A stretch of DNA of 64,000 nt, taken from assembly GCA_032718475.1 (NCBI GenBank), contig JAUCBJ010007168.1:1-64000 (forward strand). Direction: 5' to 3'. The position numbers and the translations under genes were made by a program. This document shows, piece by piece, positions 5,225 to 64,000 of the stretch. Source of the DNA: Nemertoderma westbladi. Taxonomy: Eukaryota > Animalia > Xenacoelomorpha. Numbering within the stretch: position 1 is the stretch's first letter; every line of letters starts with the position of its first letter. The notes under the pieces were generated by a model that was not told the DNA's origin, searched no databases, and worked only from the letters and a program-made list of their open reading frames with translations.

Positions 5225-6099
5225 GTAGTTCTTGAAATTATTAGGCGGATTAGTGATTTTACTAAATTTATTTTAATAATTATTTGCTTTAAACTGGATA
5301 TTGGTTATGACATTTTCAAGAAATTATCTTATATATTTTGATTGATATTGATGTTGTTGGTCAAAGTTCGATTTATATAAATAATCCTATGTTATTACCT
5401 ACATTGTATGTCATTCATTAATAATAATTTGCTATTTACCAACATTTTGATAAGCCCATCACCCCGTGCCATATAGGTATCACCTGCTATATAGTTACAA
5501 CGCCTAGTGGGTAGCGTTTCACCTTGCTGGTTCCTGGTTGTTCTCTTTTGTCTTTCAAACCAATGTAACACAACACGAGTGGGGCCTTCGTGCAGCAAAA
5601 GCTGCAAACCATCTTGCGAACAATTATAATTATACTATGGCTAGTTATATAGGTCTATTCTGATATTGGCTTCCGACAATATTATGGCTTCCGACACACA
5701 CAGACTTTTGGAAAATGGCCGTAGTATATTTATAACAGTTCGCTGTTGACTCGCAGTTTTGACTCGCCCCACATTGTCAGACAATCTAACTACTTAGCTT
5801 CAACTCTCTAGCTCTAAAAAAACAAATAATATAAATAATATTTTGTTGAATGAATGTACGGCCCCCTAATAATTCTAGACCGTTAAGGTTATGAATTCGT
5901 CGCTTTTTATTTAGTCCGCTAACTAAATATATTCTCATACTAGAAATATCCGCCAAGTAAAAAAAAAACACATGATTTCATATCCTCTTTGGAGCACCCG
6001 TATGAATGGGTCGTTAATAATGTTGTTATATTTGTAGTAAAATAATATATAAAATGGTTTAGTTTATAAGTCACTGAAAAAATTCCAAACGCGCCGAGT

Positions 6100-7619: not shown

Positions 7620-8276
7620 GCTAACAGCAGCATTACAAACTGAAAAAAAAATAATGTAATGCTGTAATTATTATTTATATCACTTATACTGTAATTGACT
7701 TTACCATAACGGTAATAAAATTATTTAATAATGATTTAGATTATAAAATACTGTGCGATAAAATTAATGTCCTGGTCCCAGGCACTAGTCTCTATGGCAT
7801 GCCTATATGCAGACGCAGAACAAACGCAGAGAGAGTCGGTAGAGGGTGTAGGCGGTAGGACTACAGCACAGTTTGTTTGTGGTTTCAATATGTTAGTTTA
7901 TTTTGATTTTATTCGGTGGGTATAATTAGGCCCTTTACTGTAATCATATAGAAATTTTGTGTCATAATTGAAACGGAGAGATGCCAAAGGGGGTAAATTG
8001 TTTTTTCATCAATTTAAAATTTTCTATGTCACACAATTTTTATCATATATTATACATCACCCATTAAATTCGTTTAAAAATAGTAATTTTTCTAAACACT
8101 AATAACCATGGTAAACAAGGCAATTCCGCATTAGTTATGGTAAAAAGAAAACCCGTATCTTCAAGGATCAATTCGCGTCGGATGTTACTGTAGATTGCAA
8201 AGGTGGTTGGGGCGTCGGCGAGTGGTTATCCAGGGGTAAGTGATGAATTCCAACCCTGAAATACTCCATTTCCAAG

Positions 8277-26170: not shown

Positions 26171-27276
26171 ACTACAGTAACAGTAACTATAATACAGTAA
26201 CTCAACAGTACACCACTACACCACTACGGTATACCACCAACAGTACATCAATGTGCGTACTATTTACAAGTTACCCTTCACAGCCACTGCTTCATACTAG
26301 AAGGTTTAAATAAATTTCCTCATGTGTGATGACTATGTTATGTAGTCCATTCGTTACTTTCGCGAACGCAATGTTGCGTAATGATACACTTTGCCTCAGA
26401 TTTCTGGTCAACGTTGTCTTATCTGATTGTCGCTCGATAGTCGGCCGAAATTTAAGAAGAATTGCCACTAAAGTTTCTTAACAAGATCTCCGTGATGTAT
26501 ATTGGCGTCCCATGTGAAAAGCCCTGGTATTTAACTCCTGCTGATCAAGTGTGGTGCGTTGATGTTAGCATTTGCAAGTACAGTTTAAAGCTATTTATTA
26601 ATTTAAATTAATTTATTTATTTATTATTTATTTATTTTAGATTTCCGCCTTATGTTGATTTAGTGAGTGCTGTCCCAGTCATTTCTCATTACCAGTTATA
26701 TTTATTCATTCTGTGAGTATTTACATAATTTTGTGCTTTCTATACCGGTGAATTTATTTACTTGTTTGTATATATTACTCTCTGTACCCATATATTTCGT
26801 ATATAGGAGTAATAATATACAGTAATAAATAATAATATATAGATTTAAGATACATTACATAGTATAATGTACCCCAGTAACATACCGAATATACACCATG
26901 TCCTGGAATATAGAGTCGTTATTGAGGCGTCACCAACCTCCTAAATTTTTACACAATGCCTTTTTTTTGCAGAATCGCACCTTTTGCCGAAACGCAACGA
27001 CACCGATCTATAACACATCTATTAATTATCTTTATCTATAACCGAAGCTCAACTTCACTTTTACTTTCTGTTCAAAGGCGCAATATGCGATAGTTAAAAA
27101 ACAATACAGATATCATCATTCAAATAAAACAGACCAAAACAAAACAATACCAATAAAATAATTTAGGCTATTACAATGTACAGTATTTAGCTATTTACAA
27201 AATGTGTAATAAAATTCAAGCTAAATTGCTCGTTAAATAATTAAGTAATTAATAAAAAAAAAATCGCCATTATCGT

Positions 27277-42900: not shown

Positions 42901-42945
42901 CATCCCAACTCGGTGTTTCTTGACAGACACGTAGTTGCACAATTC

Positions 42946-44111
42946 GGGTAAATCTTTTCGACCTACGCGTAGGCCTACGCGTAGCTACGCGTAGTTCGCA
43001 ACATTGGGTCATATATCACCAGTTTCAGAGTTTTAACAATAACTACGCGTAGGTGCTACGCGTAGCTACGCGTAGGTGCTACGCGTAGCTACGCGTAGGT
43101 CCTACGCGACCTACGCATAGGTGCTACCCATAACTATGCCTATACGTCAGTACGTCGTTTATCATTAGTAGGCTTACGTATTCCAAGCGAGTCAGTACTA
43201 AAATAAGACACAATACGGTATGTTCAATAAACAACCCACAACCATCAAATGCTTTCAACAGTAATGTATCCTATACCTGTATACTCTATATAGAGGAATA
43301 CGCGAAAACTACATATTCTTCACTTCATGCGTTGCGGGCGGTAAAATGTGTTAATAATTAATGTTTAGAGTTCAAAAATAGTTTACAAAGGAAATAGGCC
43401 GATGGTTCTTATCGATTCTCTATGCTTTTTATTGCCTTTGTTCACGATAGGGCAAGGATATACTGTATTTAATATGTTAACCCCTTGACAAGGGAAGGGG
43501 GAGACTAAATTGTCTACCATGATTGGTTGCACTTGTCATTTGACCAAACAATTTGATTATATGCAGTATTTATCAGCTTTCGCTTAACCTCTTCACCGGT
43601 AGACTGGTCGCTTTATTTACTACTGTTCAATATTTAAATAATCCAATGGAAACAAAGATACTTGAATCATGAGACGTGAATTTCAAGTTTATTTTTTATT
43701 CATCCTCTGTGTTTGTATGTGAAAGAGCCGAATATTATTTATTACCAGTGCTGTATGTAGAGATATGAGTTTCCGATTCTGTTATTACATTTGTCTGATA
43801 ATCAGATACCTGACATATACCGATACTTGCCTAACAACTCAACCCTACCGGACCTGAAATGAAAAATCATTGTTATCAGGACTGCTACGCGTAGCACCTA
43901 CGCGTAGCTACGCGTAGCACCTACGCGTAGTTTCAAAATACCTACGCGTAGTTCCAAAATAACTACGCGTAGTTTTAAAACACCTACGCGTAGTTGTTAA
44001 AAAGGCAGTAAGTCTGGCCCTACCGGTAAATGACAGGAATGGAAGTTACAAACTACGCGTAGCTACGCGTAGCTACGCGTAGGCCTACGCTTAGGTCGAA
44101 AAGATTTACCC
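42946..44111. mobile_element. Non-autonomous MULE-like element with CTACGCGTAG subterminal repeats, copy 1
   Basis: TIR GGGTAAATCTTTTCGACCTA / TAGGTCGAAAAGATTTACCC; 9-bp TSD GCACAATTC (42937-42945, 44112-44120). Confidence 0.9.
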
Positions 44112-45129
44112 GCACAATTCTTAGCCCTTTTAGAGTATTTAGCGCATTGCACAAAATGACTTATTTTGTCCGCAAAAGCTTTTACAAAGGCCTAACGATA
44201 GAGAAATATTTAGCAGGGGGTGCGTCCAATTGCTACAAACTGCGACATTTTCAGAGACACTTTTTCAAAATATTTCTTATTTCCTTATTAGTTAGACCTT
44301 TATAGAAATATTCGGAAATAAGTAAATCCTCTCCCTCCATAATATCATACACAGTAAGTACACGGGTGGGGTCTTCGTGCAGCAGAATTACAAGTCATAT
44401 AAGCAAATAATTATCATTATACTATCATATTACACCATGCCCCGGAATAGTGTCGTAATTCAGGTACCTGCCCCCCCCCCCCAAATTTTTATAAATCTCA
44501 ATAAGATGGCATGAAATTTGAAATAGAGATACTGTAGTTTCATCTCACTCCTCCAGCACCCCCTGCCGCCCCCCCCCCCCTCAAATTTTTCTACAAATCT
44601 TAATAAGATTGCATAAAATTTGAAATAGAGATACTGTAGTTTCATCTCACTCCTCCCCGCTGGGTGAGCCAGAATTTTTATTTTCGCTCTTATTCTTATA
44701 ATCTATTATATAAATCTATTCTTAAAAAAGGTGTCTCCGACGATATTGAATATTGAACAGATATATCATTTTACCAGCCTGTTTTCGCTGAAGACATTTT
44801 TTAAACTACTGAATGGGGAGCATGAATTTAAAAAGAAAAATGCGACACCCCACCCTAACCCTACACACACCAAGACTTTTGAAAACAGTCATAATATAAT
44901 TATAACATTTCGCTGATGGCTCGCAGTTGTTCTGACTCGTCCCACAGCAAGAGGCTTTCAAGCACCTAACAGTAATCCAGGACCGGTCAGCCCATACCAG
45001 AACCCAGTACCAGTACTGCAGTAGTACTGTAGTATAGGCATAGTCAGATAGTCCAGTAGTCTACACTCTACAGGTACCTTCAGTCAGTATGGTACCTTTC
45101 AATGTTCAATGTCAATCTGTCGGTTTGTG

Positions 45130-45604: not shown

Positions 45605-46360
45605 CACTTCGTGTCCATAATGTGGGTGATAAAATATCACTAATCAAATATCCCTATTATTACAGTTATTCTGTTACTTGAATGATGAATAAAGTCAATA
45701 AGAGTAGGGCGTATTACAGTCAGACAGTAGGCATTAGACAGTAGGTAATTTAGAAAATCCGCTATTAAGAATTAATATGATAAAATCATAGTTATAAAGT
45801 AAGTTACTGAAATTACAAATGAAATTGAATTAATAAATTAAATTAATATTATAATTAAACTGAGGGGACTGTTTTACATACGGTCATTTAATTTAGCTTA
45901 ATTGGAAAGATTAAAAATAATACTTTATTAATTATAACAGAAAGTTTTTATGTTTCAAGAAACTGCTATTCGCGTGTCATTTATCCCCCTGTCATTTAGC
46001 TTTAAATCATTTACGTAATGATGTGTCATTTAAACTCATTAACATAATCACGTTCACGTTGGTCAGTGTACCCAGAAAAAATTACATAATTCATTATATT
46101 ACATCAGAGTCAAAGTGCCTATCTTATTTATGCTATCTTTCATTGGTATATATTGAACCCTGCTTGACAGGCAAGGCACAGTGACGTCGTCTAATCAAAG
46201 CACAGAAACCTAGGCAGGAGCCAGTGGGCGCCCCCCTGCAGTGGTCAATTGGGCTCCATTTCATTGCTTTACATTACAGACTATTAAACTGGTTGAGAAA
46301 TTATATAATATAGGCCTAAGTAATAAGCTGGCTTTCTAAGAACATTGTATGATATTTTTT

Positions 46361-46624
46361 TTTTATTCTTTAATTGTCAAGCTGAAGTAAAAAACCTTAC
46401 CGGTAGGTATGCAAGTACAGTACGATACAAATACTAAAATAAAAAAGCAACTGACCATTAGACGTTGCATGCAATCAGTAATCAGCTGACGGCTGTCAGC
46501 TGATTACTTATTGCATGCAACGTCTAATGGTCAGTTGCTTTTTTATTTTAGTATTTGTATCGTACTGTACTTGCATACCTACCGGTAAGGTTTTTTACTT
46601 CAGCTTGACAATTAAAGAATAAAA
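46361..46624. repeat. 264-bp near-perfect palindrome
   Basis: Arms of ~130 bp mirror around 46492/46493 with one mismatch seen. Confidence 0.95.
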
Positions 46625-47382
46625 TAATTGTATTAACTCAAGCATTTAATTATTATTGTATGATATTATGATGCCTTATCATGGGGGCGGGGGGGGGGGG
46701 ACCCCCCCCCCCCCCCCGCCCCCATGATAAGGCATCAGCCTGAGGGAATTATTGGTAGTGTGGCTGGAGGCCTGGCTACAACACTTTGATGGGGTATATG
46801 GTCTCCTTTCTACTACTTATTTTCTTTGGCAACCTGCCTGGTATAATGTGGATTGTATCTGGTCTGGGGTCGGGCTCCTTTCCAAAGCAACTTCAACTTT
46901 GAATATTTTCTAATATTTGGTTTATTGCACTTCTCATTATATTTTTTTTAAATTTAACGGAACTTGACGATGGCAAAATGCTCTCAGAGTTAGTGTAAGT
47001 TGGAATCTCCACGGTAGGGTCCCGGGACCCTGGGACCCTACCCTCGCTACGCTAGTGGGCATACGTATAATACACAAGCGTGAGCGAAGCGAGTGAAAAT
47101 TTTTAAGGCTAGGGCTAACTCTTTTTAAAAATAGGCTCTACTGGCTGACTGGTAGAATTTCAAGATGCTCTACCGACTGACCGAGCATCACCACCCTGTC
47201 CCATAATAACCTCGCAGCGGTTTTGGGTCGACGGGCCAAAAGGGCTTTTTTCCTGACCTTCATCCTGGAACCCCACGAACTGACGAAGCCAGGTACTGTA
47301 CACCGGCTTTCATTGCAGTAAAGAAAAGTGTAGGCGCCGTATAACCGCGGTATAATCAGTTTTTTCAATTAAAGGGATATTG

Positions 47383-48592
47383 GGGTAAATCTTTTCGACC
47401 TACGCGTAGTTCGACCTATTGGGGCATATATCACCAGTTTCAGAGTTTTAACATTAATTACGCGTAGGTACTACGCGTAGGTCCTACACAAACTACGTGT
47501 AGGTGATACCCAGAACTTTGCGTATAGCGATGTTACTGTAGTAGGCCTACATATTGCAATCGGTTCAGTACTAAAATAAGACAATACTGTATATTCAATA
47601 GTATTGAATATATTGCTATTGACAGTACACCCATCACCCATCAAGCGCTTTCAAAAGAAATGTCTCATATACTGATATACCTGTAAACTCCATATACTGA
47701 TATAGTTGTATTTGCTACTACTGTATATATTCTTTAGCTTCACTTAATGTCAATGTGATGCGCGCACAATAATGTGTTATAATGTTTAGAGTTCAAGAAA
47801 GGTTTATAAGGAAATACAGTCGGTCGACGGTTCTATTGATTCTCATTGCCAATTATTGCCTTTCTTCACGAGAGGGAGGATATATTTAATGTGCTACCCG
47901 TTTGACAAGTGGGAGGGGAAGAATAATTGTCTACCACGATTTTATGTTGTACTTGTTTTTATGAAACCGATCCGATCCCGTTATTCCGTTTGTCTGATAA
48001 TCAGATACCTGATATACCGATACTTGCCTAACAATAGTTTTACCTACGCTTAGTTTTAAAACACCTACGCGTAGTTGTTAAAAAGGCAGTAAGTCTGGCC
48101 CTACCGGTAAATGCAGCCAGGAACACTGGTCACAATTTGTCCAATTTACAGCCAGAATGTGTCCGCGGAAAACGCTCTCAGAGTGAAATTTCTCCATAGA
48201 AAACAATGCTAAATTTCATTTGGAAACTGGCAGTGAAATTTTAACATTGGCATTCTAAAAATTATGCCATTAGAATCGCCATAAAATTATGTATAAATTA
48301 ATTTGAGAATTAGAATATCATCATTGGGATAACTATCATTAATATTAAAAATAAAAATTGTCACATTATGTGCCCAGCTTCTGCTTTGAGTACTAGTGGA
48401 GGTACAGCCAAAATATGTCCGGAAATATAATCGCAGCCTGTTGAAGGACAAATAGTGGCTTCTCGGACACTTTCTGGCTTTAAATATGTGGACAATTTTT
48501 GGCTGAGCTCCAGCCAGAAAGTGACCAGTGTTCCTAACTGAAATGGCAGGAATGGAAATTACAAACTACGCGTAGGTCGAAAAGATTTACCC
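47383..48592. mobile_element. MULE-like element copy 2 (same family as 42946..44111)
   Basis: Same TIRs; 8-bp TSD GGATATTG (47375-47382, 48593-48600). Confidence 0.88.
48114..48540. mobile_element. Nested 427-bp MITE with 5-bp TSD
   Basis: TIR CAGCCAGGAACACTGGTCAC / GTGACCAGTGTTCCTAACTG (18/20). TSD AAATG, confirmed by the empty site in copy 1 (~44025-44040). Confidence 0.85.
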
Positions 48593-49239
48593 GGATATTG
48601 TGTGTTGAGAAACTGTGATAGGCAAAACAGAAGTAGGCCTAAGCAGCTAGGCTTGTACTGTCCAGCTGTCTGCAGTCTGACAGTTTGTAGCTAGAATAAT
48701 TGCTGAATTGCATCGGATCGGATCGGATCGGACGGCATCTGACATATAATTCTACCTCTAAATAAGCTCTACACTACTGACACTGAGTGGCCTGAATGTC
48801 CAATAGATGCGCTCTAATCACCCCCAATGTGCTCTCCTACCCACCATTGCTGCATTGGCTTAACATGATTAATTGTCACCTCGCCACTCCCTGTCACCTG
48901 TTGCCACTATCCCACGTGCTAGCCTGACTAGCCTGTTTGTCCCTCTGAGGTGGTTTGACCTCTCAACTCTCCCTGTCTGTGGCTTACGGCGTGTATCGCC
49001 TTAGTTGGTTGTGAGGTGACATTATTATTGCTAATGTCACCTCGCCAACTATAATTGGTAAAATGCCACTAATCCCATTTTCGGTGGGTAGTACAGGGAA
49101 TTGAATCCGCTTACATCACCTCTTCTTTATCAGGGTCATTAACATATGGAACATGCTGGACCTGGAACACAGTAGAAACATCATCATCATCATCATTTGA
49201 TCAACACAAATCGTTTTGAAATTCCACCAAAAATATTTT

Positions 49240-52200: not shown

Positions 52201-53667
52201 TGTTGTTAAGCGGTTCTCTAGTTACGTAATAAATATTCCAGAACACTATATTATTTTAACATTGAGTAAGGCAGCATAGCATCAAGAGTTGAAGAGTACA
52301 ATATAATTACAATAGCAGTAACTATGGAAGCAATATAGTAAAATACTGCAGTTCAATTTATTTTGTAACAATATATCGCTTTATATTTTATTAACGAATT
52401 AAGCAACAAAAAAGTACCAATTTAAGAATAATAATTGAAGAGACAGCAACAATACCTGCAATATCCTACTGTAAAGTTTGTGAATCAAATCATAAATCCG
52501 ACCTTCTCACCAAAACAGTAAACTCCAAGTAAGCGAATATATTGCAGTATCGATCTCTTATGACCGGTGAGGCAGAAAACAGTCTACGAGCAGACAAACT
52601 TCGATAAAACAAAATCCCGCGCAGCGAATCCTAAAATCAGGCTGACTCGCTGACGGACTAAGGGGCTCGTATACTTTGCCGCGGTGTGATTTATATGGTT
52701 TGGTCAAAGGGACGCTAGCTAGGTACAGAGGCAGAGATTTGGAGATGTCTAACTAGCGAGCAAAGTGCAGTAAGGACGAAAGTTAATTTTATATATTTTG
52801 AGGTGTAAATAATTTCTAACGCGCGTGTGTTAATTCTGAACGGTCAAAAGCAGTTTTGCTCCTTCACATATATAATTACTGGGTACGGTGTGCATTTTAC
52901 GAATATTCTAATTTTGTAACTTGTAGGTCCAATACTCACGAATGATAAGGTTCCTTCCCCTCTTGCGTATTTCCAGGACTCAAATTCAGGCATAAGGTTA
53001 ATACTACACCCAGAATTCGGCAATTTTAGGTACCAGGTCCCTGATACTAAGAAGAGATGTGTTAGTTTACTACTGTAGGCGTACGGGTACTAATAGCTAT
53101 CCTGGCTCCTATCTAGAATTTTAGTCACCCAGGTAGTCCGGGTAACTTCCTATTAGGGCGTTGGCGGGGACACGGTAGATGTTAGTATATCCCTGATAGC
53201 CTCAATTTATTTGCGCCTAGTACGTAAACTGCCCTACCGCCTGAACGGTACAATCCTAATTCAGGTGAAAACACAATAACCCTCCTAGCCTACAAGTTCT
53301 GATGTAATGGACACCGTTGTACGGCAAATAGTCACAGACGCACCTGTACTTAGCAAGAGTTAAGCGTACAGTTTGCTGCACCCTAACCAATTTGTATGCC
53401 TTGTACCGGTGTGCCTACGTCCTATCTGCGTACTAGTATCTGCTCTCTCTCCCTCCCCCCGTAGGAATATGAAGGTCTACTGCGGTTTTTCCTGAATCAA
53501 GACAGTACAGTCCCTTTTTGATGTAATTTTAGGCTTACAGCGTGTCACTACGTCTACCTTTTGATCTTTTGGTCTTACACTTAGGTAGCAAGGATCGAAC
53601 GCTGTCTAACCTTTCAGGCGATGGGCGAATAACTCTAGATAGTATTGCGGGTTGTCTCTCGTCTACA
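52201..53667 (-). repeat. Putative 3' LTR of a second LTR retrotransposon, with adjacent PPT remnant
   Basis: Minus strand reads GGGGGAA|TGTAGAC...TAACAACA, with TATAAA at ~52691-52696 and AATAAA at ~52390 and ~52360. The partner LTR is not in the window. Confidence 0.5.
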
Positions 53668-53676
53668 TTCCCCCGA

Positions 53677-55195
53677 TGTTCCCGTTCATTGCTGCGGCCC
53701 GATCTCTAGCTGGCCATCCTGTCCCTTAAGTTTGTTCACCGTAGTGAATCCATAGTAAAACAGATAGAAAAGCTGAGAGAATATTCTGACTTTATTACAG
53801 AAGATACAATTATAATACAATGTAATCTGAGAATAAACTAAGCACGACAGAATATTGATAAGATAATCTGAGAAAGATTGAGATATAAGATATAGTGTTG
53901 ATAACAAATGAACAAATCGCACCTTTATATACTAAATTTGTGCCGCAATCAATCGAGAAAATTCTCGATTGTTCTATAGATTCTAACAAGGTTTTAAAGA
54001 TAGCTATTGGTCCAGCTAATATATAACTTGCACGACATTGGTTACAATCAAATAACTACAGCCTCATTGGTACAGACAAATGCAATTAATTTGTAGCGGT
54101 TAATTTAAATGAGTTGAAATTCTGCACAAAAAATAATTCGCACTTACTAGGATTCGAACTCAATACCTACTACACATATAATTTCCAACGCTCTACCGAC
54201 TGAGCTACTGAACCACTTGACCGATAGATGTACAATATGATAGTACCAATACGAATGAGGACTCAAAGCAATCTTTACAAAGTTAATCCGAATAAAATAT
54301 AAATTTTGAAAATCCACGGCATTTAGGGAATATAATTCTATACCGCTCCATGAAAACAGGATATTATCGTGCATAAAATATACGGTTTTCACCAATAATC
54401 AATCAAACTATAGAATACTTAGGGCGTACTTACATATTTACAATTAAATTTCAAACAATACTTCCTTTCTACGTAATGATTCGATACAAAAATAATTACA
54501 AATTTAAACTTTACGTATTTTAGGCTTTACTAAGTAAGTACAATATAAATCTAAATTAAATTCACCAATATAAATCTATTGCATCTCAATATTGCATAAA
54601 TTCAAACAATTACAAATACAAATAAATGAAAACAATAAGAAAGGCTCGCGAGTCTTCCATCTACTATTGCATCTCAAATATTGCATAAATTCAAATAATT
54701 ACAAATACTTTCGTACCTAAATGTAGATTGCATAAGTTTGGAATAATTACAAATATGAGTCTTTCTGAGCACAAAATTTTCTATCTATAAAACTTTCTAA
54801 ATACAAAATATAACACTTTACAAATGAAACTATAAGAAAGGCCCACGAGTCTTCCATCTACTCTTACTTTCTATTTCACTGTAAATACAAATACTGCTTA
54901 TAAGATATAAATTGCATAATATTCGGAACAATATAAATTGCATAAGTTCGGAATAATATAAATTGCATAAGTTTTGGATAATTACAAATATAAAATATAA
55001 ATTCTTACTAAATATAAGTCGTACTAAATACAGATATAAGCTGCTTTCTAAATTTCATAAATTCGGAACAATACAAATTGCATAAGTTCGGAATAAGCAC
55101 AAATATAAAATATAAGTTTTACTAAATTTTCTAAACATAAAACATATAATTCAAAATAAATCACAAATTCACAAGAAAGGCTCACGAGTCTTACG
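53677..55195 (-). repeat. Putative 3' LTR of the BEL/Pao element
   Basis: Purine tract AAAAGGGAGGGCAAGGGTGGA just after the extra ORF, then CGTAAG (TG mutated to CG?). Three CCAAT boxes (54006-54010, 54037-54041, 54066-54070), TATATAAAG 53923-53931, AATAAA 53791-53796, and a GGGAACA end at 53677. Confidence 0.6.
54128..54214 (-). ncRNA. tRNA-like RNA polymerase III unit inside the LTR
   Basis: A box TAGCTCAGTCGGTAGAGC, B box GTTCGAATCC and a T6 terminator ~17 nt downstream. There is no proper acceptor or anticodon stem. Confidence 0.55.
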
Positions 55196-55274
55196 TCCAC
55201 CCTTGCCCTCCCTTTTATCGCTTAGTTGATCGAGCCCTGCCGCGTCCTCGAAAACTGCGCACAGGTGACTTTGC

Positions 55275-58200
55275 TCACGATATGGGACTAATGGGGCGAA
55301 TCACTGGTTTACTTGGGACGTTGAGAGACGGTGCTACTATTTCCTCGCAAATTCGTCTATTTAGCATCCCAAAACCTCGACCGATTCCTCGTGACCGATC
55401 AGTTGTCACTACAGTTGGTAGAACGTCTGGGAACGCGCGAAAGGCGGACGACGCAGACCCAAGAGTAGCTTGCGCCCCCTGTTGATCAGCTGGTGTATGT
55501 CCCGATCCTCCTACTGGTTCTCTTGGAAGTGATACCGTATCCCGAGTAACTCGAATAGTCGGCTCAACTCCCTTGCGTTCTTCTACATTAATAATTTTCT
55601 TTAATTGTTGGCCCACCTTCTGGACCCGTATGATCCTACCCTGCCCGTCCTCCCGAGGGTGACGTGCAGACGGCGCAACCGGAGTGGCTGGTATATTTGT
55701 CGCCTCTAGGACCTCCTCTTCCTCGAATACGCTCGCTCGTATACGTTTATGGTAAAACGCGGCTCGGTACGCCCATGCGACGGTTAACCAAGCTCCTTTA
55801 TTCCGCTTTTCAGTTCGGAAACGATCGAATTCACCATACGTAATGCGATTAACGACTTTCTGAAAATTCCACGTGTTTTTGTTATCCGGGTGAATCTGTA
55901 GTAGATACTCGCGCACCACTCGGAATCCGCTGTCGTGGGGCAAAATATCAACAACCTCGATAAGTTCGTCATATTGGGGCATAGCGGAGATATATCCTTC
56001 CGACATCATCGTCTGGGGATTTACCGCCCAAAATCCGAGATGCGCTCTCATCGGAAACCGTCTTCTCTGTGCCGATACATGTTCGTCGGCCAAATCCTCC
56101 CACTCATCAAATAACTTCCTCACGAGTTTTACAGATTCGTGTTCATAAGGTATGTCTCTTAGTTGGCATTCAGATGCTCGATGTCCCTTTATATTGCAAT
56201 AAGTACATTGGGCCATAAATCTCCAGCAAGTATAAAAGGTATGAGACCCTTGATCCCCACACCATCCACAGATTAGCTGAGTCGTAGTAATGTGCTTTCC
56301 ACTGCACTTTGCCATATGATGTCCAGCGACGCCACATTTACTACACATCGTATTGGCAGGGTACCACACTCGTTCGTATATAAGATCTCCAATCGGTCGA
56401 GCGCTTCCTCCCATACTATAATCGTAATCATCTGGGTCTATGGGTTGGTAGGTTTCTGAAGGTTGTATACAAACTATAGCATCTGTTGCTTCAAGTTGTC
56501 GAATCTCCGTCTGAGATTTCTTCGGGAGGTTCCTTTCTATCTCAAGAAGTTCCTCTAAAGGATCGTCAGTGATCGTAGTAGTTACTTCGAATTCATCACC
56601 AAGGTGACCGATAGGCGCGCGCGTCTGCCGTGATTCATCCGTAATTTCCACGATACGTTCTCCTTCATAGGGTAACAATGTAAACATAGATGGTCTTTCG
56701 ATAAGAGATCCCGCACAGCGAAGATACACGTCTCGAAATATACTAAATCCTGCTCGAGTAAAGGCATTACACTGAGCGTCGGAGTTGTAGAAGGGTTCAA
56801 GGAATCGTCTAAACACGTCGGTACGAATTCTCCCTTCCATGTAGAACGTATGATCTTCTCCGAGACAAAGTGGATGTCTTTTGAGAGTCCGAGACACAAT
56901 GTCGGCGATTAGGCAAACATTCACTGACGACTCTATTGCTAAATAATATTGTAAGACCGCTCTTGGAGGTGACGTAATAGCCCAATACACGCATCCTCTC
57001 CATTTAAGCTGTGATTCAAACTCACTCATATCTGGAGTATCACCTTCTCCATAAGTTTCAATATACTTGTTTCTCTTGCCTTCCTTATAATCCCAATTGA
57101 ATAACAGGTAGGAAATGTATCCAGTTCCAGTCTTCTGAGTATTATACTCACGAAAATATCCCTGTTCTATAGACCACAGGATAAGAGGTCGAGTGTCGAC
57201 GTATGGTGTCGGTAGTCGGTCATCGCTGTCCGTCATGCCGGCGAAGTCGCTAATTAAATCCTCCCTTACTCCTGATCCAACCTTTACAACAGTTTTATCT
57301 AAAATCATGTTTCTTACCATCTTCGGTAGCATTCTAGCGTCGATATTACAAGCTTGGTCCATCTTCTTTACTATATCGGTGATAAGATGGTGTCGCTTTG
57401 TATTCGCTGGAGGTATCGGCATTCGTTTGTCGCTCCTCTGTCTACTGAAAACGTGCAGGACTCCGTCCGCCGCTCTAATCTGTATAGTCTTAGAAGTCAA
57501 ACTCTGCTGATGACTGCCGCCCTCGTTATCGTAAAACATGTAACCGTTTTCCTGAAACGATCTAAACGTCCTATTCCATTCATCCAACAATTCTTCCGAA
57601 GGTTGCCAAATCTTCTCTATATCCTTATCCTCATCGAAACGAATAACCTTACCTCGCCAATCTGCGGCAATATCTGTATCCGACTCGAAGGTTCCGGTTC
57701 CAATCCATAAACGAATCGTCTTGGTCAGATATCCTTTCAGATTACTCGGAGCTATATCGGCACCAGCTCTATCCAGTTCCTTGAAATCTTGAATATGAGG
57801 TGGAACGTTGTACACGACCTTTTGAGTAATATGTCTACGTAAATCATATATCTTACTCATATCGCTGAAAACAACTGCAGGAAGAAACTCCAAGTTTGAA
57901 ATGATTTCTGGATGATCCACGATGGGTATTTCGTACGTCGTATCCTGTCGGACTGGTATACTAATAGGGAAATTGAGTGTCGTACTCAATGGTTTCGTAG
58001 CTGAAGTACTATACGGTTGCATTTCTCTTGGCCTCTCCGGGGATGCAATCTGTAGTCTCTGAATAACGTTTTGAGCAAAGTTTATGCTCTCGAAAACTTC
58101 CGGTGTCATCTCCTTAGCTGAAGTTTGATCGTGTGACGTCCAATGGCAAGGTAGGCTCGCGAGTCTTCCACCCCATTCTTCCATCTCACCTTTCTCGAAA

Positions 58201-58940
58201 GCCTTGTAGGCTCTGTATAGGCTAAGAGCTTCTTTCTTTTCGCGGGTTGACTGATTCGCCTCGTCCAGCGTAAGTTCAAATACATCGGGTTCAACAACCT
58301 TAGGTGGGTAAATGACAGTTTCTCCCGCCTTTGGTCCGGTCATAGCAAATGAATGATATGGATTCGATAAAGGATACCCTCCTTCCTGGTAGCGTAGTTG
58401 TTGATGATTCGAACACCTCGCCAATATCGGTTCGGGATTTTCCTTATTCAAACGCATCGGAATCGCATTTCGTTGTTCGCGCATACAAGAACCGCATTGA
58501 TAATAAAGTTTATAAACTGAAAATGCTTCCTTGGTTTCTCTATCGTCCCCTCGAGTTCGTCTGTAAAGATGCATTCCATTGAATTCATCGCGTACCGCGG
58601 GCATAGGTTCGTGCGCCTTTAGGTATTGCATGGTATGATACAAACGACTAATTTCAGTATCGGGGTCTTCGCTAATGTCTCCCGTATCACACAAAGCATC
58701 GTACGGGTAAAGTTCATTGAAGGTTTGGCGCAAACTTTCGATTCTTTCGTTTAATGCGTTTTGCCTTCTCTTTAATACATTCGAGTCATATTTAGTTCTC
58801 GCGAGTTTCGCTGTACTTTCCGATAATTCTTTTATACCAAATATAGTATAATCCTTGGCTCCAAATCTTTCGAATGGCGCTGCTGCCTCCTCTTGGATAT
58901 CATATCCCCATCTCGGCTCTCCTTGTATCCCTTTCTCCAT
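55275..58940 (-). CDS. Extra ORF of the BEL/Pao element: DEDDy (WRN/RNase D-like) 3'-5' exonuclease domain plus three zinc knuckles
   Basis: 1221 aa, uninterrupted. ExoI FYDNE followed by TIQI, ExoII LDKTVVKVGSGVRED, VDT, and ExoIII-like W...QYYLAIE. Knuckles CSKCGVAGHHMAKC, CGWCGDQGSHTFYTC and CTYCNIKGHRASEC. No signal peptide or TM segment seen. Confidence 0.75.
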   Translation of the reverse strand: MEKGIQGEPRWGYDIQEEAAAPFERFGAKDYTIFGIKELSESTAKLARTKYDSNVLKRRQNALNERIESLRQTFNELYPYDALCDTGDISEDPDTEISRLYHTMQYLKAHEPMPAVRDEFNGMHLYRRTRGDDRETKEAFSVYKLYYQCGSCMREQRNAIPMRLNKENPEPILARCSNHQQLRYQEGGYPLSNPYHSFAMTGPKAGETVIYPPKVVEPDVFELTLDEANQSTREKKEALSLYRAYKAFEKGEMEEWGGRLASLPCHWTSHDQTSAKEMTPEVFESINFAQNVIQRLQIASPERPREMQPYSTSATKPLSTTLNFPISIPVRQDTTYEIPIVDHPEIISNLEFLPAVVFSDMSKIYDLRRHITQKVVYNVPPHIQDFKELDRAGADIAPSNLKGYLTKTIRLWIGTGTFESDTDIAADWRGKVIRFDEDKDIEKIWQPSEELLDEWNRTFRSFQENGYMFYDNEGGSHQQSLTSKTIQIRAADGVLHVFSRQRSDKRMPIPPANTKRHHLITDIVKKMDQACNIDARMLPKMVRNMILDKTVVKVGSGVREDLISDFAGMTDSDDRLPTPYVDTRPLILWSIEQGYFREYNTQKTGTGYISYLLFNWDYKEGKRNKYIETYGEGDTPDMSEFESQLKWRGCVYWAITSPPRAVLQYYLAIESSVNVCLIADIVSRTLKRHPLCLGEDHTFYMEGRIRTDVFRRFLEPFYNSDAQCNAFTRAGFSIFRDVYLRCAGSLIERPSMFTLLPYEGERIVEITDESRQTRAPIGHLGDEFEVTTTITDDPLEELLEIERNLPKKSQTEIRQLEATDAIVCIQPSETYQPIDPDDYDYSMGGSARPIGDLIYERVWYPANTMCSKCGVAGHHMAKCSGKHITTTQLICGWCGDQGSHTFYTCWRFMAQCTYCNIKGHRASECQLRDIPYEHESVKLVRKLFDEWEDLADEHVSAQRRRFPMRAHLGFWAVNPQTMMSEGYISAMPQYDELIEVVDILPHDSGFRVVREYLLQIHPDNKNTWNFQKVVNRITYGEFDRFRTEKRNKGAWLTVAWAYRAAFYHKRIRASVFEEEEVLEATNIPATPVAPSARHPREDGQGRIIRVQKVGQQLKKIINVEERKGVEPTIRVTRDTVSLPREPVGGSGHTPADQQGAQATLGSASSAFRAFPDVLPTVVTTDRSRGIGRGFGMLNRRICEEIVAPSLNVPSKPVIRPISPIS

Positions 58941-59600
58941 AATTAGGGTGTAGTTACATAATCATTACTACTAGAGGGAATACAACAGAGTTTGTAGTTA
59001 GTTGTGAGGAGACGTGAGAGTTTCGTCTGCCCTTTGGGCTCGACAACGCTCTAACCTCCTACCCATAGCCTAAGATCTAGGGTTTCTTTAATGACACGCT
59101 GCTTCTTATCTAAAATTTTTTGCCGAAATAAAAACGAATTTTGGGCTAAACTGGCCGTGAGTCTAAAATACTCACTTTTTGATCCCAAACTATTATCAGA
59201 AAATAAGCAGTCAAGAATTAGTAATAAATATAGGGGAGTCTATTTTGACGTAACTTATTGAAACAAGACCGTGTAAAATTTAATTAAAATTTTAAGAAAG
59301 GCTCGCAAGTCTTCCTCTCTTGTTTCTCTAATTTTAAGTTCCACCCGACTGTACCCTGAAATCTATTCACTGGAGAAAATTTTTAAAAATTTTTCAAATC
59401 CAAATGGATTGTCTAAAATTTCGAAAATGTCTCAATATTGTGAGTTCCAAGTAGAATTCCATTTCTTATACCTACAAATCCCGCTCCTATGTGACACATA
59501 AGGGTACTACCCTCAATGTTCACATATAAAGACAATGGAATTCTACCGCTGTCCTTACTACGGTGTACAGGTACGTGGAAATCTATTTGTAAACTCCTAA

Positions 59601-62600
59601 TTATTTACTAATACTAGTTGGAGATTTGTAGTCTCCAGACTCATTACGAGTCTCTTCAAGAAGTACGAGACGTTGAGTCGGTCTGTCTACTGTACGACCG
59701 TCAATTGTCCGTACCGTCACAGTTCTTGTCACTCCATCCATAGATGGATGTGTGGCTAAAATTACACCTGTTATCCAGAAGCGTCTTTTTAGATTCACTT
59801 CCGCTAACAGCACGTGATCTCCCGGCTTTAATGCGCGGGTGTTATTGTACCAGTTTGTTCTGGCAGAAATAGAGGGCAAATAATGGTTTTGCCATATTTC
59901 CCAGAATTTGTTAGCCAGTAGTTTCGTGATTTTCCACGCTTTTCTACCGTAGCTGTCGCTTTCTATTGGAATAGAAATCGGCGTCAAAGTGGTCGGTGCC
60001 TGCATTAGCAGGTGTGCCGGTGTCAAAGCGAACTGAGATTGTTTGTCATCGGGTACTAATACTATTGGTCTAGTATTTAGTATTGCCTCGATTTCAACAA
60101 ACAATGTTGTCAGTTGGTCGTCTGTTAATATGTGGTTTACTGGAATGACCTTTGCCATGGCTGTCTTTATAGATCTAATCAATCTCTCCCAGACTCCGCC
60201 TCTCCAAGGACTATCTGGAGGGTTGAACTTCCAAACAATCTTGTGAGGTTGTAGTTCGTTCGAGATTTGATCATGATCTAATTTCTTAAAGGCTCTAGCA
60301 ATCTCATTCCGAGCACCAACAAAGTTTGTCCCTTGGTCTGAATACAAGCATTTTACTAGTCCGCGTCTAGCGATAAATCGCCTCAGTGCTAGTATAAACG
60401 CGTTGGTGGAAAGATCCATCACACGTTCAATATGAACTGCCCTACTGGACATACATGTGAAAATCAGTCCCCAGCGTTTTACTAGTATACGTCCACGTTT
60501 CGTATGTATGGGACCAAAGCAATCAATTCCAGTCTCTGTAAAAGGTGGTCTGAATGCTTGAAGTCGTGCTTGTGGTAGTTCACTCATTTCTTGGGTACCT
60601 ATTCTAGAATGTACCTTTTTACAAATAATACACGTACGTGTCACTGAACTTAACGCTTTACTGGGTCTAATTAATACAAATCTTGTACGTAAGTAGGAAA
60701 GACAGTGGTGTCTTCCAGCGTGTTTCAGATGTAAATGTGCGTCCAGTATCATTGCACGTTGTAGTTCGTGGTGTTGCGGTATTATTATTGGGTACCTAAA
60801 GTTTGTGTTAAAGTCAATGTTTTGAAGCCGAGATTTATGACAAAGTAAGCCATTATAAATAATCGGACTCCAACTCAGTATTGGTGACGACTTGATTGGT
60901 TGACCTTGATTTATGGATGTGAATTCGCGCGCGAAATATCGCAGTTGGTAATGGCGAATTAATTTAATCTCACATCTGTCAATCTCAGCCAATGTAAGTC
61001 GACGTGTAAAGTCACGTTTGCCTTTAACGTATTGTACAAAACGTACAATCCACGCTAATTTTCGGCAAACGTTTGTCCAAGAATCTGTTATGTTTACAAT
61101 ACGGTCGACATGAGTATTTGTGACGTCATCAGGTAAGTCAATTGAGATTTTGGAAGGTTTTGAATTACTAGAAGGGCCCACGGGTCCGCCGGTAGGTATT
61201 CCCTTGTTGACTGTTGATCCGTCCGGGTCTACAAGTAATTTGTCCTTCTTTGTCTTCTTACCTTGATTGTCGGTACTTTGTAAGTCGATCGTTAATGGTG
61301 GTTTGAACTCTATGGGATCAGTGGGTTTCGGTAAACTAATTTTTCTGCCGATATTAATCCCAGGTTTCACCATAGGTTGCAAGTTCGGTATGTCTCTTGA
61401 GCGCAAAGTAACACCTGTATTTACATTAGCGTAGGTACTACCCACATCTGTAATACATGAGGTTTCACCGTGGTTGCTCAAGTGTGTCAAAATTGATAGT
61501 TTGTCAATACAAGGCCGCTCCAATAGGGAAACTGCGGCTTTACTGTTAGTCGATAAATTACTAATGTCCGGTAGAACATTTTGTGATGTTTCTGACAAAA
61601 TGTCTAGTCGACTGTCTAGTAATGTGTCTGGCGATACGTCTGGTAACGTATCTGGTTGTTTGTCAATAGAAGGCCGCTCCAATAGGGAAACTGCGGCTTT
61701 ACTGTTTGTCAATACATTACTAATGTCCGGTAGAACATTTTGTGATGTTTTTGACAAAATGTCTAGTCGACTGTCTAGTAATGTGTCTGGCGATACGTCT
61801 GGTAACGTATCTGGTTGTATGTCAATAGAAGGCCGCTCCAATAGGGAAACTGCGGCTTTACTGTTTGTCAGTACGTTACTAGTGTCTAGTAGAATGTCTG
61901 GTTGACCGTCTGGTAACGTGTCTGGTTGACCGTCTGGCAATATGTCTGGTGTAGAAAGGCTCGCAAGTCTTCCTCTCTTGACCTTTGAAGTTATATCTTT
62001 CCATTTCGCCTTCGGTTTTTTCTTGAGTTTTGCCGCCGTCGTCCTTTTCTTTGTCTTCCCCTTTTTTGGTTTCTTGATTTCGGCGTCCTTGGGGATGGTG
62101 TTAGATTTGTTGTCGTATAGTGGCGGCCAATGTAGTGTTGAACCTTGTAAGAATTGTGGTCCGTGTTGCCAAAATTCTTTGTTCTCCGGTTTACAGAATT
62201 CCTCAGGCATCATTCCTCGCGACGCAATATCAGCTGGGTTTTGTGGTCCGGGACAATGTCGCCAATCCCCTTTTATTGAACGGTCTAGAATTTCCGCGCG
62301 ACGGTTAGCAACGAATGTCTTGAATTCGAGTGTGTCGTTGTTTATGTAAAATAAAACCAACGTCGCGTCAGTCCAATAAAATATCTGTAAACTCGACTGT
62401 AGTTCTGTCTGTATGAGGTTCACGATGGTGGTTGACAGGGTTGCGGCTTGTAGCTCGGCTCGTGGTGTCGTCATATACTTAGTAGGCATGGTCTTAGCCT
62501 TAGAAGTAATGAGCGAAACATCGAACTCGTCTGAGTCTACTTGTCTGCGCAAGTACGCTGCCACACCAAAACCGTTGTCACTGGCGTCAGAAAAACAGTG

Positions 62601-63287
62601 TAGTTCCAAGTTGTCAGGAAATGTACTTTGTAATGGAAAGTAAACCCTGGGTATGGAATAATCCTCTAGCGAAGATAATTCCGCCTCCCAGGTCTTCCAT
62701 AAGTCCACTTGGTCTGATGAGATCGGCTCGTCCCATGTTAGTCCATCCTTCCATATACTACGCATATAAATGCGGGCTTGCAGTATCACTGGACTGATGA
62801 ATCCTAACGGATCGAACAATCGGCTCAACTTTGACAAGCATGATCTCTTTGTCAGTGTGTTCTCTTGACTGTCCAGTCTCACTTTCACTCGAAAGTTGTC
62901 TGTGTTTGGGTCCCAAAAGAGCCCTAACACCTTAGTCGTCGGTAGTGGTTCGAACTCTAGGTCTATGTCACCACCTCCACGCTCAGTCGTCCCGAATGAG
63001 TCTACTAATTCGGCACTGTTTGAGGCGAATTTGGTGAGGTTAAAACCTCCGCCCGCTAAGCAGTCCCGTAATTGATGTGCTACTGTTGTAGCACGTTCTA
63101 CTGTGTCGCAACTCTGTAAACCGTCGTCTACATAAAAGTCACGCTCCACAATCCTAATTATCTCTGGGTCATACAGGTGTTTCTGATCCCTAGCGGCCTG
63201 CTTTAGGGCGTACATCGTGCAATTTGGGCTGTCTCTGGCACCGAAAACGCGAACTTGCATTTGGTAAGTCGCCGGTGGTAGACTTAA
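59601..63287 (-). CDS. BEL/Pao pol (RT C-half, RNase H/Pao A17 region, integrase); 5' part cut off by an insertion
   Basis: FYVDD, KVLGLFW, LFDPLG, LHCFSDAS, TPRAELQAA, FVANR, NPADIASRG, HH-CC zinc finger, GIDCFGP, SRAVHIE, FIARRG, SDQGTNF, WRGGVWERLIRSIK and LTPAHLL. Confidence 0.95.
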   Translation of the reverse strand, partial: LSLPPATYQMQVRVFGARDSPNCTMYALKQAARDQKHLYDPEIIRIVERDFYVDDGLQSCDTVERATTVAHQLRDCLAGGGFNLTKFASNSAELVDSFGTTERGGGDIDLEFEPLPTTKVLGLFWDPNTDNFRVKVRLDSQENTLTKRSCLSKLSRLFDPLGFISPVILQARIYMRSIWKDGLTWDEPISSDQVDLWKTWEAELSSLEDYSIPRVYFPLQSTFPDNLELHCFSDASDNGFGVAAYLRRQVDSDEFDVSLITSKAKTMPTKYMTTPRAELQAATLSTTIVNLIQTELQSSLQIFYWTDATLVLFYINNDTLEFKTFVANRRAEILDRSIKGDWRHCPGPQNPADIASRGMMPEEFCKPENKEFWQHGPQFLQGSTLHWPPLYDNKSNTIPKDAEIKKPKKGKTKKRTTAAKLKKKPKAKWKDITSKVKRGRLASLSTPDILPDGQPDTLPDGQPDILLDTSNVLTNSKAAVSLLERPSIDIQPDTLPDVSPDTLLDSRLDILSKTSQNVLPDISNVLTNSKAAVSLLERPSIDKQPDTLPDVSPDTLLDSRLDILSETSQNVLPDISNLSTNSKAAVSLLERPCIDKLSILTHLSNHGETSCITDVGSTYANVNTGVTLRSRDIPNLQPMVKPGINIGRKISLPKPTDPIEFKPPLTIDLQSTDNQGKKTKKDKLLVDPDGSTVNKGIPTGGPVGPSSNSKPSKISIDLPDDVTNTHVDRIVNITDSWTNVCRKLAWIVRFVQYVKGKRDFTRRLTLAEIDRCEIKLIRHYQLRYFAREFTSINQGQPIKSSPILSWSPIIYNGLLCHKSRLQNIDFNTNFRYPIIIPQHHELQRAMILDAHLHLKHAGRHHCLSYLRTRFVLIRPSKALSSVTRTCIICKKVHSRIGTQEMSELPQARLQAFRPPFTETGIDCFGPIHTKRGRILVKRWGLIFTCMSSRAVHIERVMDLSTNAFILALRRFIARRGLVKCLYSDQGTNFVGARNEIARAFKKLDHDQISNELQPHKIVWKFNPPDSPWRGGVWERLIRSIKTAMAKVIPVNHILTDDQLTTLFVEIEAILNTRPIVLVPDDKQSQFALTPAHLLMQAPTTLTPISIPIESDSYGRKAWKITKLLANKFWEIWQNHYLPSISARTNWYNNTRALKPGDHVLLAEVNLKRRFWITGVILATHPSMDGVTRTVTVRTIDGRTVDRPTQRLVLLEETRNESGDYKSPTSISK
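61500..61950 (-). repeat. In-frame 159-bp (53-aa) tandem repeat within pol
   Basis: AATAGGGAAACTGCGGC recurs at 61522, 61681 and 61840; the protein repeats SKAAVSLLERPSID... Confidence 0.9.
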
Positions 63288-64000
63288 CCCTATTAAACCC
63301 GGGGGGGGGTCAATATGACCCCCCCGTGGTTTTTTTATTATAATTCTGAAACAAACGCAGTTGGGAATCTGAAACTTTCTGACTTTTCCTAAAAATCTAT
63401 TATCTTCCTAGTAGTGAAAACCGTTTTCAAAAATATTGCGTACTTTTTGAGTTATAGCACCATTTTTTAACCCTACTTTTGGCACTTTTTTTGAGACGTT
63501 TTTTGAAAATTACATTTCATTAAATATGAATTGTAACATCTCTATTTTTGATTTACACCGGTTTTTTGGTGTTAGAAATTGGATGGAATTCATATAAATT
63601 GATTTAGAAATTTCAAACTTGTTTTTTTCGGTGGGTGCCAAATTTTGGTGCCAGCACCAAATTTTGAAATATGTCAATTTTGTAAATTGATTATTTGAAA
63701 CTTGTTTTTTACGCAATTGGGGTTTTTTGTGGTTCTGGATTCGATGAAATATATACGAGTTGCACTAAGCGTATCAAACTTGTATTTTTCGGTGCTGTGT
63801 GCAAATTTTGGTGCTAGCACGAAATTTTGAAAATCCATTCAATAGATAAAATTGCTTGTGACAATTTATTTCTTGCGTTTTAGAGGTTTATGGCTGTTCT
63901 GAATTCAATGGAATATATAATTATCGAACTAGACATCTCAAACTTGTATTTTTCGGATGTGGGTGCAAAATGTGGTGCCAGCACCAAATTTTGAAAACCA
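63288..64000. mobile_element. TTAA-inserted (piggyBac-like) non-autonomous element interrupting pol
   Basis: The pol frame is interrupted at TTAA (63284-63287), followed by CCCTATTAAACCCGGGGGGGGGTCAATATGACCCCCC and ~165-bp internal repeats (GGTGCCAGCACCAAATTTTGAAA). Confidence 0.7.

Follow-up and report, generated by a model that had tools for sequence, protein, structure and literature searches.

We analyzed a 64,000-nucleotide stretch of DNA from Nemertoderma westbladi (assembly GCA_032718475.1, contig JAUCBJ010007168.1, positions 1 to 64,000; hereafter, the window). Its minus strand carries the 3′ part of a BEL/Pao long terminal repeat (LTR) retrotransposon. Downstream of pol and in the same orientation lies a long open reading frame (ORF), which we call ORF3. 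The pol frame ends at position 59601 and is followed by a 660-bp spacer, after which ORF3 begins. An earlier note, made from the letters of this DNA, had described an intact ORF between pol and the polypurine tract and LTR, encoding a DEDDy-type exonuclease with zinc knuckles. The co-oriented ORF of 1221 amino acids (aa) behind pol is present as described, whereas the polypurine tract and the 3′ LTR are candidates only and the element copy is broken: the reverse transcriptase (RT) is interrupted, and gag, protease and the 5′ LTR lie outside the window. The coordinates of the features are collected in Table 1.

ORF3 is not an envelope gene. No transmembrane stretch was found: the highest 19-residue Kyte-Doolittle mean is 1.38 and falls at aa 661, a position in the nuclease domain. 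A hydrophobic N-terminus was not detected in this hydropathy scan, in which no dedicated signal-peptide predictor was used, and Pfam gave no env family match. The absence of a transmembrane helix claimed by the earlier note was borne out, and the hydropathy scan agrees with its claim that a signal peptide is lacking. The motifs that it had read as those of a DEDDy-type 3′-5′ exonuclease (D471-x-E473, TIQI at residues 485-488, KVGSGVRED ending at D561, and Y666-x3-E670) are all at those residues. The three CCHC-type knuckles and the N-terminal CxxC...CxxH cluster were also located. The predicted exonuclease domain contains two insertions of about 30-40 aa each, one after β-3 and one before ExoIII. 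In Pfam, the knuckles matched zf-CCHC with E values of 0.003-0.024 only, under the family cut-off. For the N-terminal 425-430 aa or so, Pfam, NCBIfam and the ESM atlas gave no match.

Homologs of ORF3 were sought among 1.84 billion proteins by HMMER, and three matches were obtained. One of them, P0123 (558 aa, E 2e-5), aligns over both the exonuclease and the knuckles with 29-30% identity. It carries D71-T-E73, D140 and Y247-x3-D251, a canonical D-E-D-D tetrad, together with knuckles in the same layout as in ORF3. The exonuclease region of ORF3 scores 128 against P0123, and the maximum over 300 shuffles was 56. E670 aligns with D251, in agreement with the Glu-for-Asp replacement at ExoIII that had been read earlier. 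The likeness behind the knuckles is not significant alone (47 of the 300 shuffles score equally high), and the N-terminal 425 aa of ORF3 have no counterpart in P0123 (92/300 shuffles as high). P0123 is an unannotated protein on a 7460-bp ENA contig, known here from the protein alone, and has a Cys cluster in its post-β-3 insertion. P0122 (plant) and P0124 (a copia-type gag-pol protein) match the knuckles only and were set aside as homologs. Word-indexed searches with ORF3 yielded no homolog among 7042 candidates, nor any at E 10 among 5238 shorter ones. Neither metagenome contigs nor viral contigs yielded relatives in locus scans, tblastn against phage genomes gave none at E 1, and all PHROGs rows had E>0.1.

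Table 1. Features of the BEL/Pao element and its surroundings in the window
Feature	Position	Strand	Basis
ORF3 (P0001), 1221 aa	55275..58940	minus	ATG at 58940, stop at 55275; frame open to 55215
DEDDy-like 3′-5′ exonuclease domain (predicted), about aa 426-690, WRN/EXD2/Nibbler type	56871..57665	minus	profile, atlas and seeded-model comparisons
ExoI, D471-N-E473	57522..57530	minus	motif position; listed variants at N472 and E473 silent
ExoII region, K553-D561 (KVGSGVRED)	57258..57284	minus	motif and alignments; listed D561 variant silent
ExoIII, Y666-x3-E670, Glu at the family's Asp position	56931..56945	minus	aligns with Y247-x3-D251 of P0123
Three zinc knuckles of ORF3	56166..56345	minus	CX2CX4HX4C (56304-56345), CX2CX5HX4C (56226-56270), CX2CX4HX4C (56166-56207)
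Cys/His cluster in the N-terminal 425 aa of ORF3	58404..58496	minus	residue reading (C149-x2-C152...C176-x2-H179)
Hairpin copy 1, in pol	61954..61973	minus	palindrome and descriptor
Hairpin copy 2, in pol; both partners changed in two base pairs	61171..61190	minus	relaxed pattern and descriptor
Hairpin copy 3, in spacer	59296..59315	minus	palindrome and descriptor
Hairpin copy 4, in ORF3	58150..58169	minus	palindrome and descriptor
Hairpin copy 5, in ORF3	56610..56629	minus	structure descriptor
Hairpin copy 6, 3′ untranslated region	55175..55194	minus	palindrome and descriptor
Hairpin copy 7, 3′ untranslated region; U-G wobble at closing pair	54836..54855	minus	palindrome and descriptor
Hairpin copy 8, 3′ untranslated region	54639..54658	minus	palindrome and descriptor
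Spacer between pol and ORF3, 660 bp: six upstream ATGs, candidate splice acceptors (nearest ~58968)	58941..59600	minus	sequence reading
BEL/Pao pol, 3′ part: RT end (YVDD), RNase H region, integrase, DUF5641	59601..63287	minus	Pfam, homologs
Three in-frame 159-bp repeats in pol, between RNase H and integrase	61494..61970	minus	repeat scan
Insertion breaking RT at TTAA (63284-63287); ~164-bp internal repeats; runs past window end	63284..64000	–	repeat scan, high-copy contigs
Candidate polypurine tract, 3 nt before TGTT	54461..54470	minus	sequence reading
Candidate 3′ LTR, 725 bp, TGTT...AACA	53733..54457	minus	end motifs, depth
Further multi-copy non-coding DNA	52350..53732	minus	contig depth; no primer-binding site recognised

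The domain was also compared with models, profiles and structures. The NCBIfam scan of ORF3 (18950 models) gave a single match, DnaQ (Pol III epsilon), with E 0.02 on ExoI. With ESM atlas features of aa 425-740, 24 of 30 matches fell in clusters with PF01612 and the other six in clusters without a family. The best match reached 0.92 (167/256 features; PF01612 on 50% of the members in the row shown), a level to be read against a control in which shuffled proteins reach 0.9 in 4-10 of 100. When a profile of ORF3 and P0123 was compared with the PDB, EXD2 ranked first (E 1.2, on ExoII). Compared profile to profile, seven bacterial WRN-type enzymes matched at P 1.6e-4; the alignment spans 129 columns and keeps ExoI and ExoII in register. 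The same profile gave P 0.12 for RNase D (three rows only) and 0.041 for PolA (12 rows). The HRDC domain of the Rrp6/RNase D type was not detected in ORF3 by Pfam at E 10. A 7-sequence hidden Markov model (HMM) scored 6.5 bits on the domain, exceeding 500 of 500 shuffles (maximum 1.5). D471, E473 and D561 form invariant columns with 59 bacterial rows and P0123. The spacing from Trp to Tyr before ExoIII is 11 in 60/60 bacterial enzymes and in P0123, and 12 in ORF3. Because of this spacing and the alignment with P0123, Y666/E670 is preferred as ExoIII.

Several results speak against an exonuclease assignment and have to be set beside these. Pfam matched neither PF01612 nor any other nuclease in ORF3 even at E 10 (a PF01612 row was also absent for P0123), and the PDB sequence search with the exonuclease domain alone gave no match. 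On full-length ORF3, a 60-sequence HMM scored 4.5 bits against a shuffle maximum of 4.3, which is marginal. MAFFT twice put the bacterial ExoIII on an earlier stretch of ORF3 than Y666/E670. AlphaFold from the single sequence gave a predicted local distance difference test (pLDDT) value of 31 and no usable fold. The usable model was seeded with 59 bacterial exonuclease rows, cut before ExoIII, and is partly circular. The structure check of residues ~440-700 proposed in the earlier note came out divided: the single-sequence model failed, and the seeded model matched EXD2, WRN and Nibbler. The seeded model has a pLDDT of 60, under 50 from residue 621 on. Its match to EXD2 has a Foldseek E of 1e-5 and a template modelling score of 0.29 (Z 10.3, root mean square deviation 3.0, 107 residues), and its other structural neighbours are Egalitarian, NrnC, WRN and Nibbler. 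Many of the structural alignments reach model residue 260 (aa 685), which places the Y666/E670 helix near the ExoIII helix with low confidence. This is the one non-circular point, since the bacterial rows gave no guidance there.

Thus, the atlas, NCBIfam, P0123 and profile comparisons agree with the exonuclease domain of the earlier note, as signals that are weak but concordant. The domain is very likely DEDDy-like, on the WRN/EXD2/Mut-7 side of the superfamily, with a fold that is predicted from models. We class it as DEDDy-like and not as canonical, because its ExoIII departs from Y-x3-D and its score is below the Pfam gathering cut-off.

ORF3 is a multi-copy gene that is linked to pol and evolves under purifying selection. 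Of the nine listed sequencing runs, five hold ORF3, four of these containing 67-70% of its words; the window's own sample may be among the runs. From pol through the spacer and ORF3 to the 3′ region, contig coverage is unbroken, at depths far above that of the unique flank. In run X1, the depth was 8134 at position 57078 and 28 for the flank contig; such summed contig depth is no copy number and serves only the statement that the family is multi-copy. In run X4, a 1887-bp contig over 56995-58881 (depth 290) has 19 differences and no gap. Overlapping contigs (58919-59383, 59145-59504 and 59390-59951) connect ORF3 to pol across the spacer. The linkage to BEL pol is thus seen in multi-copy contigs. 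Copies of ORF3 with about 82% identity (981 bp, 179 differences) are also present. Read joints at 56768-58801 and 56656-58781 mark derivatives without the exonuclease stretch, and a further deletion joint lies at 59906-62148. These comparisons draw on 40 of the 637 variant rows and 15 of the 407 joints. The stop codon at 55275-55277 is private to the window copy, as the contigs of all four runs differ there; past it, the frame stays open for 19 further codons, eight of which are Arg or Lys. Depth is uneven in run X4, where the middle is about tenfold shallower than the RT/RNase H part and the 3′ part of ORF3. Run X5, labelled as a second organism, holds short pieces of 95-99% identity over 52777-64000 at depths of 2-12, from a close relative, a mixed sample or a transfer; its RNA nature is only guessed, and it was not used as expression evidence.

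Selection among the copies, a check that the earlier note had named, was analyzed over 56800-57620. Of 86 variants, 40 were listed, and 30 of these are silent, where 21-30% would be expected. This corresponds to a ratio of 0.09-0.14, and the binomial p values of 4e-13 to 5e-9 are indicative only, because the variant rows are non-independent and the best supported ones. No indel rows in this part of ORF3 were among the listed variants. At E473 and D561, only silent variants were listed. In pol, 11 of 19 listed variants are silent. E670 is kept in the majority contigs of both X4 and X1, the latter having a depth of 7012 and 0 differences over 56800-57018. Thus, D-E-D-E is the state of the family.

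The sense strand of the element also carries an array of small hairpins. An imperfect palindrome of 21 nt occurs six times on this strand (0 expected), and a relaxed pattern added a seventh copy, in which two base pairs are changed on both sides. Both strands of the whole window were then scanned with a structure descriptor that asks for a 5-bp stem, an A-C mismatch, another 2 bp and a YGYG loop. All eight of its matches are on the sense strand of the element, between 54639 and 61973 (null mean 0.04, maximum 1 in 300 shuffles). Since the descriptor was written after seven copies had been seen and selects for pairing, only the covariation of the seventh copy and the existence of the eighth are partly independent. 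Among seven distinct copies, pairing holds in 92% of cells, with U-A, U-G, C-G or G-C as closing pair, and the covariation score was reached by 3 of 500 shuffles. Loop positions 2 and 4 are an invariant G. The U-G wobble and the strand bias favour an RNA hairpin over a DNA palindrome. Rfam gave nothing credible for it. The two hairpins in ORF3 sit in different codon phases. Six of the eight hairpins lie downstream of the pol stop, which would speak against their serving to pick out genomic in preference to subgenomic RNA. The protein that binds them could be Gag, ORF3 or a host protein. The copy at 61953-61980 matches that at 59295-59322 at all 28 nt, and G-R-L-A-S-L is the translation of two coding copies.

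From these results, we tentatively favour the reading that ORF3 is an RNA-binding accessory nuclease, which may shield the RNA of the element from host small-RNA silencing. Counter-silencing was chosen on the expectation that an abundant selfish element profits from a gene that selection maintains in it. Papers are cited here by PubMed Central number. ORF3 would be made from a spliced or internal mRNA; the proposal draws on the upstream ATGs and candidate acceptors of the spacer, and third ORFs are typically expressed in this way (PMC5408684). The protein would work in trans, with which its separation from Gag-Pol and the existence of copies without the exonuclease stretch are compatible. Despite Glu at the fourth position, it is probably catalytically active, judging from the conserved acids and the canonical homolog P0123; an RNA substrate is favoured because of the knuckles. 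These knuckles would dock the protein on RNA, and the docking sites might be the YGYG hairpins of the element itself. In the SL2 tetraloop of HIV-1, knuckles bind the second and the fourth G (PMC7599994), the loop positions at which G is invariant here. ORF3 would then over-trim or destroy the guides or precursors of PIWI-interacting RNAs (piRNAs) or small interfering RNAs (siRNAs), as an unregulated mimic of trimmers of the Nibbler/Mut-7 type. Nibbler trims the 3′ ends of piRNAs (PMC11599104). It seems rather doubtful that the two parts, a Nibbler/Mut-7-like nuclease and knuckle-read tetraloop tags, form a self-recognising counter-silencing system that destroys piRNA or siRNA guides on or near tagged transcripts.

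Other observations count against this proposal. The enzyme may be weak or dead, because Glu replaces the fourth acid in the majority copies. That D471 has no variant holds for the 40 listed rows of 86. Egalitarian exemplifies that the exonuclease fold can be a non-catalytic RNA-binding surface (PMC13186709). The stability of the hairpins is at shuffle level (z -1.3 to +1.2, six copies), and the hairpins could be Gag sites.

The Egalitarian case leads to an alternative that we regard as possible, albeit less probable than a counter-silencing nuclease. ORF3 would be an Egalitarian-like or Rev-like RNA adaptor, whose fold binds while catalysis is dispensable, and the eight hairpins would be read for export, localisation, stability or translation, the mRNA of ORF3 included. 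Glu at ExoIII throughout the family fits such a role, as do hairpins that are confined to the element and to its sense strand. With six of them past the pol stop, most would be contained in the ORF3 mRNA, so that regulation would fit better than genome-selective packaging. In Egalitarian itself the catalytic residues are dispensable, and it binds a stem-loop of the I-factor retrotransposon (PMC13186709). However, its targets each contain two helices, 6 bp long or longer (PMC13186709), whereas the hairpins here span 20 nt, and a LOTUS-like domain was not detected in ORF3 by Pfam or the atlas. Complexes of Egalitarian, BicD and RNA rank second in Foldseek, but these ranks derive from the seeded model. 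Moreover, D561 and E473 vary only silently among the copies, and the distant homolog P0123 keeps the four canonical acids. As another alternative, ORF3 would be a nuclease of the replication cycle, in or near the particle, that trims the 3′ ends of primer tRNA, genomic RNA or cDNA, or clears faulty cDNA. We consider this fairly unlikely. EXD2 and WRN are among the top neighbours of the seeded model, and single-stranded DNA is a further ligand of zinc knuckles. The substrates of DEDDy enzymes are structured RNA or single-stranded DNA, and this role has been proposed for the third ORFs of bdelloid rotifers (PMC5408684). Against it, most BEL/Pao elements replicate with gag-pol alone and few have a third gene (PMC11599104). 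ORF3 is unfused to Gag-Pol, and no particle-targeting signal was recognised in it. Copies without the domain exist, though complementation in trans is possible.

The closest host proteins by fold (Nibbler, Mut-7 and EXD1) promote small-RNA pathways (PMC5408684). From this, ORF3 might feed a host silencing or antiviral pathway, to the benefit of the host or in self-limitation, for example by trimming precursors to mature small RNAs. This is improbable: the family is abundant in three DNA runs, and self-limiting elements are expected to be out-competed (PMC5408684). Least probable of all is a last explanation, with the frame as a neutral passenger, as a stray gag that belongs to another element, or as no exonuclease at all. 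ORF3 has no significant family match, and its knuckle matches include the gag-pol protein P0124. However, purifying selection on ORF3, the gapless 1887-bp contig together with the ~82%-identical copies of the same stretch, a hairpin common to pol, spacer, ORF3 and 3′ untranslated region, and a match to P0123 far above shuffles (128 vs a maximum of 56) largely refute this explanation.

A DEDDy-like exonuclease in a third ORF has been published for the bdelloid LTR retrotransposons Juno and Vesta (PMC5408684), so that the precedent named in the earlier note is in print. A DEDDy exonuclease also occurs in Athena/Terminon elements (PMC6431247), and DEDDy is cited as a known accessory domain (PMC6338049). 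According to PMC5408684, the activity of the bdelloid proteins is yet to be shown. Like ORF3, those of Juno and Vesta are separate genes downstream of pol in the position of env, without transmembrane or signal features, and one Asp/Glu change in the acidic tetrad is found in both. The tetrad is D-E-E-D in Juno and Vesta (PMC5408684) and D-E-D-E in ORF3, and their pol has a GPY/F-type integrase, whereas that of ORF3 is BEL/Pao. ORF3 embeds the domain in a protein of 1.2 kaa (thousand aa) that has an N-terminus of no assigned family and three knuckles; knuckles are not mentioned in the available description of the bdelloid proteins, the basis of this comparison. The ORF3 family is abundant and under purifying selection; the bdelloid DEDDy ORFs are low copy. 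No bdelloid DEDDy ORF3 was returned by our homolog searches. Juno and Vesta are gypsy-like elements.

With the WRN/EXD2/Mut-7/Nibbler/EXD1 group (PF01612), ORF3 shares the D-x-E of ExoI, an LQ/IQ strand, the LP..KVG..D of ExoII and the W..Y layout of ExoIII, and EXD2 is its best PDB match both by profile and by seeded model. It differs from this group in scoring below all curated cut-offs, in the Glu of ExoIII, in two insertions, in the fusion to knuckles and in being mobile. Egalitarian (ExoHD) is likewise an exonuclease-fold protein tied to stem-loop RNA signals, including one of a retrotransposon (PMC13186709). It is a host adaptor with LOTUS-like domains, BicD binding and larger stem-loops, none of which was detected in ORF3 or its element. 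The Dada transposases of Laccaria and Ectocarpus also join a DEDDy exonuclease to a mobile element, but Dada is a DNA transposon with the domain inside the transposase, for which DNA-end processing was proposed (PMC3706591). In the pairing of the HIV-1 nucleocapsid with SL2 and SL3, CCHC knuckles bind G at tetraloop positions 2 and 4 (PMC7599994). The HIV-1 hairpins cluster in the 5′ leader and are bound by Gag, whereas those described here are spread over the 3′ two-thirds of the element.

No BEL/Pao element with a DEDDy ORF3 was found in the literature searched, most subscription papers and the Repbase and Dfam entries being outside its scope, and the words exonuclease and Belpaoviridae are absent from PMC13524379. 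What is new is the BEL/Pao superfamily, the WRN/EXD2-type D-E-D-E domain, the triple knuckle in a 1.2-kaa protein, the evidence for selection and the presence, within one element, of a candidate RNA ligand. What DEDDy third ORFs do has been a question ever since rotifer elements were found to carry them (PMC5408684), and the arrangement is now extended to BEL/Pao, with evidence of selection on the active-site region. The question is whether animal retrotransposons encode active countermeasures to small-RNA silencing or RNA-handling factors of their own. It is directly testable with what is at hand: a candidate soluble domain, P0123 as a natural homolog whose tetrad is canonical, and a candidate RNA ligand. 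If the self-recognising system were real, it would, with the exonuclease third genes of unrelated LTR lineages, represent an enzymatic suppressor of small-RNA defence in animals that transposons encode and have acquired repeatedly.

The pol upstream of ORF3 is an open frame of 1268 codons with Peptidase_A17 (E 1.5e-42), DUF5641 (E 2e-20) and an H2C2 integrase finger in Pfam. Its integrase region has 1642 homologs, of which the best 120 are BEL/Pao polyproteins with 34-41% identity, nearly all with PF05380 and PF18701, and those with names are from fish and marine invertebrates. BEL/Pao elements have been described from metazoans only (PMC2774666). The 159-bp repeats and a Lys-rich stretch lengthen the linker between RNase H and integrase by several hundred residues. 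The end of the insertion in RT reads GGG-TTAA. We take this end to be piggyBac-like.

The polypurine tract and the 3′ LTR remain candidates because neither a second LTR nor a target-site duplication was found within the window by self-BLAST. The candidate LTR holds CCAAT three times (54010-54070), TATAAA at 53929 and AATAAA at 53796, and the summed depth rises about 2.5-fold in its bin in runs X1, X2 and X4. Another purine run, 18 nt long at 53443-53460, was discarded as polypurine tract, since no TG follows. The multi-copy DNA at 52350-53732 is a candidate for a long U5 or for the leader of a tandem copy that shares the LTR. Inside the candidate LTR, a stretch at about 54140-54215 on the minus strand looks tRNA-like, with the appearance of an A-box and a B-box; ARAGORN and Rfam call nothing credible there.

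Elsewhere in the window, two LINE-type (long interspersed nuclear element) RT frames lie at 1-1725 (plus) and 24401-26215 (minus). A single-exon frame for an AMP-binding enzyme (608 aa) occupies 3446-5272 and a ubiquitin-conjugating-enzyme-like frame (255 aa) 6900-7667, both on the minus strand. A 133-bp inverted repeat at 46358-46627 is 98% complementary with a 4-nt spacer. Two related elements of about 1.2 kb, at 42942-44112 and 47377-48598, resemble miniature inverted-repeat transposable elements, with terminal inverted repeats and CTACGCGTAG arrays.

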